A DNA stretch of 64,000 nt from Octopus vulgaris. Taxonomy: Eukaryota. Location of the stretch: assembly GCA_951406725.2 (NCBI GenBank), contig OX597827.1, forward strand, positions 2,046,001 through 2,110,000, in the 5' to 3' direction. The notes beneath the pieces were generated by a model. It was not told the DNA's origin, made no database searches, and saw only the letters and a list, made by a program, of their open reading frames with translations. Below are positions 39,232 to 39,883 of this stretch, in pieces (position 1 is the stretch's first letter; each line of letters opens with the position of its first letter). The position numbers were made by a program, and so were the translations under genes.

Positions 39232-39293
<62 letters not shown>

Positions 39294-39465
39294 AATATTA
39301 GGGAATAAATCCAAATTTACAGGGAAAAAATCAGATTTAGGATTAAATCCAATTTTATAGTAAAATATTATATAATATTAATTAGAGACAAAACCACTAT
39401 TTTGCAAAACAAACAAGGAAAGACTTAATCAATACATAAAATTTTAATAAAAAGTAAAAAAACCG

Positions 39466-39508
39466 CCACTACAATTGTTTCTTGTCCTGATCGACAATCT
39501 TCAGGTGG
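39466..39508 (-). ncRNA. Minimal type-I hammerhead ribozyme (inverted copy)
   Basis: Exact reverse complement of 39688-39730. Confidence 0.85.
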
Positions 39509-39687
39509 ATTTCCAATTTTCAAGTCAGTTTCAAATTATGACTTCATAATTTGAAACTGACTTGAAAAGCGGGAATACTTTTTATACATATGTTAGGTTC
39601 CTATGGTAACGTAATGTTGTTTGACGTTTTTAACGGCTAGAATTTAATTTCACTTCATAATTTGAAACTGACTTGAAAATTGGAAAT

Positions 39688-39730
39688 CCACCTGAAGATT
39701 GTCGATCAGGACAAGAAACAATTGTAGTGG
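39688..39730 (+). ncRNA. Minimal type-I hammerhead ribozyme
   Basis: CCAC-CUGAAGA-UUGUC(gaucag)GACAA-GAAA-CAAUUGU-A-GUGG: stem I CCAC/GUGG, stem II 5 bp, palindromic stem III ACAAUUGU, GUA cleavage triplet. Confidence 0.85.
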
Positions 39731-39814
39731 CGGTTTTTTTACTTTTTATTAAAATTTTATGTATTGATTAAGTCTTTCCTTGTTTGTTTTGCAAAATAGT
39801 GGTTTTGTCTCAAA

Positions 39815-39883
<69 letters not shown>

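Follow-up and report, generated by a model that had tools for sequence, protein, structure and literature searches.

Head-to-head copies of a hammerhead ribozyme sequence in a (TA)n tract of Octopus vulgaris: a probable Penelope-like double insertion of spliced terminal-repeat RNA

Introduction

Insertions of endonuclease-bearing Penelope-like elements (PLEs) have an inverted, 5′-truncated copy at their 5′ end and a tail, typically of 30–40 bp, on one end only (PMC8557442). A lizard PLE protein cuts and extends both target strands in vitro, and the cDNA starts at two sites bounding the tail (PMC11167929). Rotifer PLEs have junction palindromes of 18 and 38 bp, which were interpreted as the result of self-priming, and an Inr-like TCACT motif was reported in their pLTRs (PMC3846280). 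PLEs are also noted for keeping introns; an antisense RNA template was proposed for them, and the choice between antisense and unspliced sense RNA was left open (PMC3846280). In Penelope of D. virilis the intron starts 46 bp after the start site (PMC2377424), and the 5′ intron ends at helix I (PMC4209133).

The minimal hammerhead ribozymes of metazoan PLEs (Cervera and de la Pena 2014, PMC4209133) are of type I, with an intact core, a 4-bp helix I, a palindromic stem III and a dimer-type fold. A G10.1-C11.1 pair is named as conserved among them, and pairs of motifs on opposite strands, 100–700 bp apart, are already known (PMC4209133). Self-cleavage is ascribed to them as dimers or with the help of proteins. 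Animal non-LTR retrozymes are short and non-coding, carry a type-I hammerhead and are thought to be derived from PLE pLTRs (bioRxiv 10.64898/2026.07.22.740005). In the parts of that work used here this origin is argued from distribution and trees, without a mechanism, and a retrozyme is defined as a head-to-tail tandem with the ribozyme in at least two consecutive units; circular RNA is a further retrozyme trait.

Here we describe a locus within 64,000 nt of Octopus vulgaris DNA (the window, to which all coordinates refer). With the EN+ PLEs (Penelope/Poseidon, Neptune, Nematis) it has in common the head-to-head inverted pair and the one-sided tail (PMC8557442, PMC3846280, PMC11167929), as well as a junction palindrome, an Inr-like TCACT motif, a hammerhead near the 3′ end and, apparently, an AT-rich or (TA)n target. 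It differs from them in having no ORF and a tail of 78 nt instead of the usual 30–40. Its hammerheads agree with the metazoan PLE motifs in type, intact core, 4-bp helix I, palindromic stem III, predicted dimer-type fold and close pairing on opposite strands; unlike these, they have a 5-bp helix II closed by U-A, and they are known here from sequence and folding prediction. Like the non-LTR retrozymes the element is short and non-coding with a type-I hammerhead, but it has one ribozyme per strand, arranged head to head, and no ribozyme tandem. While PLEs are described as keeping their introns, both halves of this element appear spliced, and one of them has an extra exon-to-same-exon junction.

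Results

Two Unequal Copies Are Joined 5′ to 5′

The left arm (39369–39541) and the right arm (39655–39827) are reverse-complementary over 173 nt each, are separated by 113 nt and differ at a single pair of positions, 39384/39812 (1 difference per 173 nt). The arms, their spacing and the single mismatch, as given in a preliminary description of the locus, were confirmed. This is the only exact inverted repeat longer than 40 nt outside microsatellites in the 64-kb window; the remaining two that were found measure 30 and 36 nt. No ORF is present, as had been claimed: the longest stop-free frame in the element has 45 codons, 17 of them from a Met. No further copies of the element were found elsewhere in the window.

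Tracts of (TA)n lie at both ends of the element, at 39240–39290 on the left and at 39822–39853 on the right, where (AG)n follows. On the left, however, 78 nt (39291–39368) part the arm from the tract, which adds a correction to the preliminary description. The element is asymmetric because of these 78 nt. The minus-strand copy (39541 to 39291, 251 nt) comprises a putative start-site exon less 3 nt, an apparently spliced junction, the hammerhead, the 3′ part and the tail. The plus-strand copy (39541 to about 39827) has about 287 nt. Thus the minus copy reaches 78 nt further in the 3′ direction and the plus copy has 113 nt more at its 5′ end. The 3′ extension of the left copy (39291–39368, minus strand) contains two degenerate repeats of 31 nt, 38 nt apart, and would be the counterpart of the PLE tail (PMC8557442, PMC11167929).

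The 5′ ends of the two copies meet at 39541 and share this one letter. The 113 nt between the arms, called a spacer in the preliminary description, are not inert: the first 27–28 nt repeat the start of the right arm (39541–39567 is identical to 39652–39678 over 27 nt) and form part of a 25+2+25 palindrome at the junction (39517–39568), in which 39544–39568 is the perfect reverse complement of 39517–39541. The element is composed of two unequal, ORF-less copies joined 5′ to 5′ and is no symmetric unit.

Each Copy Carries a Minimal Type-I Hammerhead

A descriptor scan of both strands of the window gave two type-I hammerheads, one per arm, while 100 third-order Markov simulations gave a chance expectation of 0.01 hits per window. 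This bears out the earlier report of a type-I motif on each strand. The plus-strand motif lies at 39688–39730 with a predicted cut at 39726|39727, the minus-strand motif at 39508–39466 with a predicted cut at 39470|39469. The predicted cut sites are 101 and 179 nt away from the two 3′ ends, which places the hammerhead near the 3′ end of the insertion. Both motifs have all core letters (CUGANGA, GAAA, UH), a helix I of 4 bp and a helix II of 5 bp. Their stem III is palindromic, ACAAUUGU (15.2-16.2/loop 3 palindrome), and allows a dimer; two copies of the motif are predicted to co-fold as a double hammerhead at −22.2 kcal/mol, compared with −6.6 kcal/mol for one. The palindromic stem III and the dimer-type design noted before thus find support.

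The word “perfect” used in the preliminary description applies to the core letters only. In place of the conserved G10.1-C11.1 a U-A pair closes helix II, and Rfam gave no hammerhead match. In supplementary Fig. S3 of PMC4209133, the rows for Hydra and D. willistoni likewise have no G-C at this position. The Rfam search gave no hits in the window at the gathering score. At E values up to 10 it yielded no hammerhead but sub-threshold hairpin matches, mostly of miRNA models on the junction palindrome, which were dismissed as chance. Minimum free energy folding of the 71-nt and 46-nt motif was no better than that of shuffled sequences (z 0.47 and −0.20), so that the hammerhead call rests on the core motif. 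The motif is absent from the text supplement (5,371 characters) of the octopus repeat paper (PMC13282606), the part of that paper considered here.

Elsewhere in the window, a decayed minimal hammerhead of an unrelated family was noted at 29521–29563 (plus strand), with a 4-bp helix I, a core that is one letter short and a mismatched helix II. The insert that holds it measures 166 nt and is flanked by (AAT)n and (TA)n; the window has no second copy of it.

The Element Belongs to a Highly Repeated Family

Parts of the stretch occur in 20 of the 24 sequencing runs listed, from 10 studies with four species labels, each with at most 0.68 of 34 words; among the runs listed with parts of it, none is RNA by its record. 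We aligned contigs of four runs, X1, X3, X4 and X7 (556, 1460, 1825 and 68 contigs), to 39271–39700. X1, X3 and X4 are classed as “DNA?” and X7 as RNA by guess only, and ends of RNA molecules are not visible in contigs. Summed depth in the DNA? runs was 10^4–10^6 on the arms, and 334, 384 and 751 at the bin of the window's own junction; summed contig depth is no copy number and is used here only as a rough contrast. The existence of copies elsewhere, predicted in the preliminary description, is thereby confirmed, and the family is highly repeated. Exact-pattern scans of viral, metagenome and genome contigs gave no match; these are mostly microbial collections and uninformative on the family.

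At least nine distinct head-to-head joints (10 rows) from other places were found, each at a depth of 6–51, and the joints listed have eight different breakpoints on one side. Since the breakpoints vary, we conclude that the inversion is rebuilt at each insertion; a hairpin that moves as a unit by itself is not supported. With 31 nt required on either side, none of the contig pieces listed spans the junction of the window itself; one contig (record 15) spans a similar one, with 5 differences.

At the loop position 39487/39709 the two arms agree in a letter that is the rarer one in the DNA? runs, where the other letter makes up 96%, 72% and 97% of the depth; the two arms therefore come from one source. 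The letter at 39616 was not present in the family depth of any of the four runs. Together with the near-identity of the arms (1 difference in 173 nt), this private letter suggests that the insertion is recent, in agreement with the earlier view, although conversion between the arms could hide its age.

Some contigs end in other ways. Two X7 contigs stop at 39369 beside TA, the same end as that of the right copy. At a loose end at 39362 in X3, 10 contigs have only part of the tail followed by TA/GA repeats and represent tail-only insertions. A single X7 contig with a loose end at 39539 continues from the arm into a hammerhead that is diverged and lies on the opposite strand, and so represents an inverted pair of greater age.

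Both Arms Appear to Be Copied from Spliced RNA

Contigs of X1, X3 and X4 that match up to 39678 continue with GTATGT, whereas the window continues into the hammerhead part. In X4 there is a variant with a GTAAGT donor 4 nt before 39678, and all three DNA? runs include a form from which just these 4 nt are missing at the mirror position 39518 (depth 1048, 308 and 381). Because two donors have two matching products, 39678|39679 and its mirror 39518|39517 are likely to be exon junctions. The right-copy hammerhead exon would then extend from 39679 to 39827 (plus strand) and run into the TA tract, with its end somewhere between 39821 and 39827. No 3′ end of the presumed intron, the acceptor next to the hammerhead exon, was present among the loose ends listed.

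At 39568, contigs of the same three runs enter after ...TTTCCAG, and the window has the 27 nt preceding the donor there. The putative exon between these signals, exon E (39568–39678, plus strand, 111 nt), has ...TTTCCAG before it and GTATGT after it in the related contigs, in three of the three DNA? runs at either end. As the contigs carry CAG before 39568 and GT after 39678, 39567|39568 looks like a junction at which donor and acceptor of one and the same 111-nt exon were joined. The 27-nt identity and the donor seen at contig loose ends suggest that the 5′ end of the right copy (39541–39567, plus strand) is a first exon ending at a splice donor. The simplest source of 39567|39568 would be a tandem precursor, in which this first exon was spliced to the acceptor upstream of the start of the next unit; such a precursor, implied here by this junction, would correspond to the direct pLTR-ORF-pLTR partial tandem of EN+ PLEs. 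Back-splicing together with a template switch is a rival explanation for the junction.

Both arms thus appear to be copied from spliced RNA, a point missed in the initial reading. Spliced copies speak for spliced RNA of the sense strand as the template, at least once per spliced form, although the insertion itself could derive from a source that was already intron-less. In comparison to Penelope of D. virilis, the Inr-like motif is followed by the donor at a distance of 27 nt, and 9 nt separate the junction from helix I downstream of it; the presumed intron would end just before helix I, as it does there.

Loose ends at 39568 and 39578 show that the first 10 letters of the family sequence upstream of exon E are also those with which the start-site exon begins, which suggests that part of the sequence was duplicated internally long ago. 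In a second subfamily the sequence upstream of 39578 is different.

Joint Breakpoints Cluster near an Initiator-Like Motif

In right-arm coordinates, one partner starts at 39654–39659 in 7 of the 9 listed joints and at 39646 and 39669 in the other two; for this mapping, a shift by 111 or mirroring was applied to three rows that fall on the identical first repeat. The copies in the window start at the equivalents of 39655 and 39652. An Initiator-like motif (YYANWYY, 39650–39656, plus strand) has its A at 39652. The clustering of the joint starts has a binomial p of 4e-6 or lower for an interval chosen after seeing the data. From this we infer an RNA 5′ end near 39652; local microhomology is an alternative.

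The other partner ends 6–23 nt 3′ of the cut site in 6 of the 9 listed joints (post hoc p of about 1e-4 to 3e-4). All of these ends are in or beside a T-rich tract and none is at the cut site, and we do not take them as evidence of cleavage in vivo.

The Hairpin Is Predicted to Silence the Ribozyme in Read-Through RNA

On either strand the antisense arm is transcribed ahead of the ribozyme, of which there is one per strand. According to folding predictions, the energy cost of imposing the hammerhead is 78 kcal/mol for the full element as well as for transcripts that end just past the motif, but 5 kcal/mol for the right copy alone. Considering this cost, the single motif per strand and the dimer-type stem III, cleavage within the read-through hairpin is unlikely. 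The competition between cleavage and hairpin proposed earlier would therefore be one-sided: the hairpin has the earlier transcription of the antisense arm and a predicted advantage of 78 kcal/mol on its side.

For X7, 10 differences were listed, three of which are absent or nearly absent in the DNA? runs. All three are A-to-G on the sense strand of the element. We regard this as a weak hint of ADAR editing at the level of the family, without assignment to the locus in the window. At 39487, moreover, X7 has no loop letter other than that of the copies in the window (0 of a depth of 71.5), unlike the DNA? runs; this uniformity may mark an expressed subfamily.

Target Site and Neighboring Elements

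TA tracts of at least 6 units cover 4.7% of the window, so that a single insertion in a TA site is modest evidence of targeting. The (TA)n on both sides hides any target-site duplication. A Pfam scan of 173 frames of the window (55 aa or more) gave no PLE RT or GIY-YIG ORF; EN+ PLEs combine the two in a single ORF. The only RT-related frames, two at 40.4–41.4 kb, match R2-group proteins, and the RT 600 nt downstream was ruled out as a partner of the element on this ground.

Broken pieces of R2-group non-LTR retrotransposons are present at 40424–41796 and 8660–9046 (both plus strand). The two C-terminal pieces are 53% identical over 66 aa, and both adjoin (TAA)n tracts, which fits Dong/R4 elements. 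Other repeats in the window are a 1.3-kb (AAT)n array of about 436 units (7185–8494) and a short dispersed repeat with three copies in both orientations (12324–12353, 25234–25269 and about 26422–26457).

Discussion

Our data are best explained by two short, ORF-less copies of a repeated hammerhead sequence that were placed head to head in (TA)n. Most likely they go back to one event driven by a PLE enzyme, which would have copied spliced terminal-repeat RNA on both target strands. Membership in the PLEs is inferred from non-coding features, the 173 frames of the window including no RT/GIY-YIG partner. The inverted pLTR-like layout with a PLE-type minimal hammerhead, recognized in the preliminary description, is strengthened by the head-to-head pair, the one-sided tail and the at least nine further joints.

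In such an event, the PLE RT-endonuclease would cut both strands of the TA tract, and each 3′ end would prime cDNA synthesis at one of two start points about 78 nt apart, which would leave the tail on one end only. Both cDNAs would run through the hammerhead and the intron-less junction (39678|39679, mirror 39518|39517) to the RNA 5′ end near 39652, and the two cDNA ends would then be joined. The template of the left copy would consist of the first exon and the hammerhead exon. The template of the right copy would have undergone an extra splice, from the donor of the first exon to the acceptor upstream of the start site of the next unit (39567|39568), skipping any ORF in between. Alternatively, a genomic copy already devoid of the intron could have given rise to the insertion template. 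The hairpin would be a by-product, predicted to silence the ribozyme in read-through RNA.

The extra splice would be dispensable if the 25-nt copy at the junction of a PLE-type insertion had arisen by snap-back self-priming of the left cDNA, followed by a 5′-truncated right copy. The perfect reverse complementarity of 39544–39568 and 39517–39541 suits this alternative, and so does the interpretation of the rotifer junction palindromes (PMC3846280). We nevertheless consider it unlikely. The position of the join coincides exactly with the donor used at 39678 and immediately follows the CAG of the related contigs, and CAG occurs at only 0.9% of the element's positions. Moreover, the copy holds two letters (39542–39543) that are present in the element but missing from the left arm, and a microhomology join on the shared AG would give one A fewer than is present.

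It is quite improbable that the whole inverted repeat is a non-autonomous element, of the hairpin RNA or retrozyme-like type, that spreads as a unit, as the preliminary description had proposed. The absence of an ORF, the X3 contig that crosses a similar junction and a depth in the junction bin (334, 384 and 751) above that of single joints would fit a spreading unit. However, this depth is far below the 10^4–10^6 on the arms, the listed joints differ in their breakpoints, and nearly identical junctions would arise in any case from two copies that both begin at the RNA 5′ end. A mobile inverted repeat is thus not upheld, and neither is a retrozyme-like unit: with one motif per strand in the window there are no ribozyme-bearing units in tandem, and according to the folding predictions the hairpin would block the ribozyme.

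An assembly or library fold-back artefact, for which one could cite that no listed contig bridges the exact junction, is very improbable, because the structure is asymmetric (tail, extra exon, one mismatch, different flanks) and three independent DNA? runs contain comparable head-to-head joints. Hardly credible is a MITE-like DNA transposon that would have inserted at TA and would have the 173-bp arms as its terminal inverted repeats: inverted repeats, missing ORF and TA site would agree with it, but the left end lies 78 nt beyond the repeat, so that the repeats are not at both fixed termini, the joints vary, the junctions match splice signals, and the hammerhead is of the PLE type.

While the layout of the probable PLE double insertion corresponds to known PLE architecture, its splice anatomy is the new point. 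Our literature search found no report of spliced or ORF-skipping pLTR copies; most subscription papers, among them the first PLE intron paper, were outside this search. Spliced copies bear on how PLEs copy themselves. In a family of high copy number, with spliced as well as unspliced genomic copies, two donor variants and numerous joints, the template of each half could be read directly from the genome.

We tentatively suggest, as a possibility that we hold somewhat less likely than its opposite, that short spliced sense RNAs, transcribed from the terminal-repeat promoter, are the form in which the family spreads in bulk, and that one splice form leads from the first exon past the whole ORF to an acceptor upstream of where the next unit starts and lets the ORF-less copy regain the promoter region. 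If this is true, both halves of the PLE inversion would be copied from sense spliced RNA, with neither an antisense nor an unspliced template, and splicing would provide PLEs with a route to make their own non-autonomous, retrozyme-like parasites.
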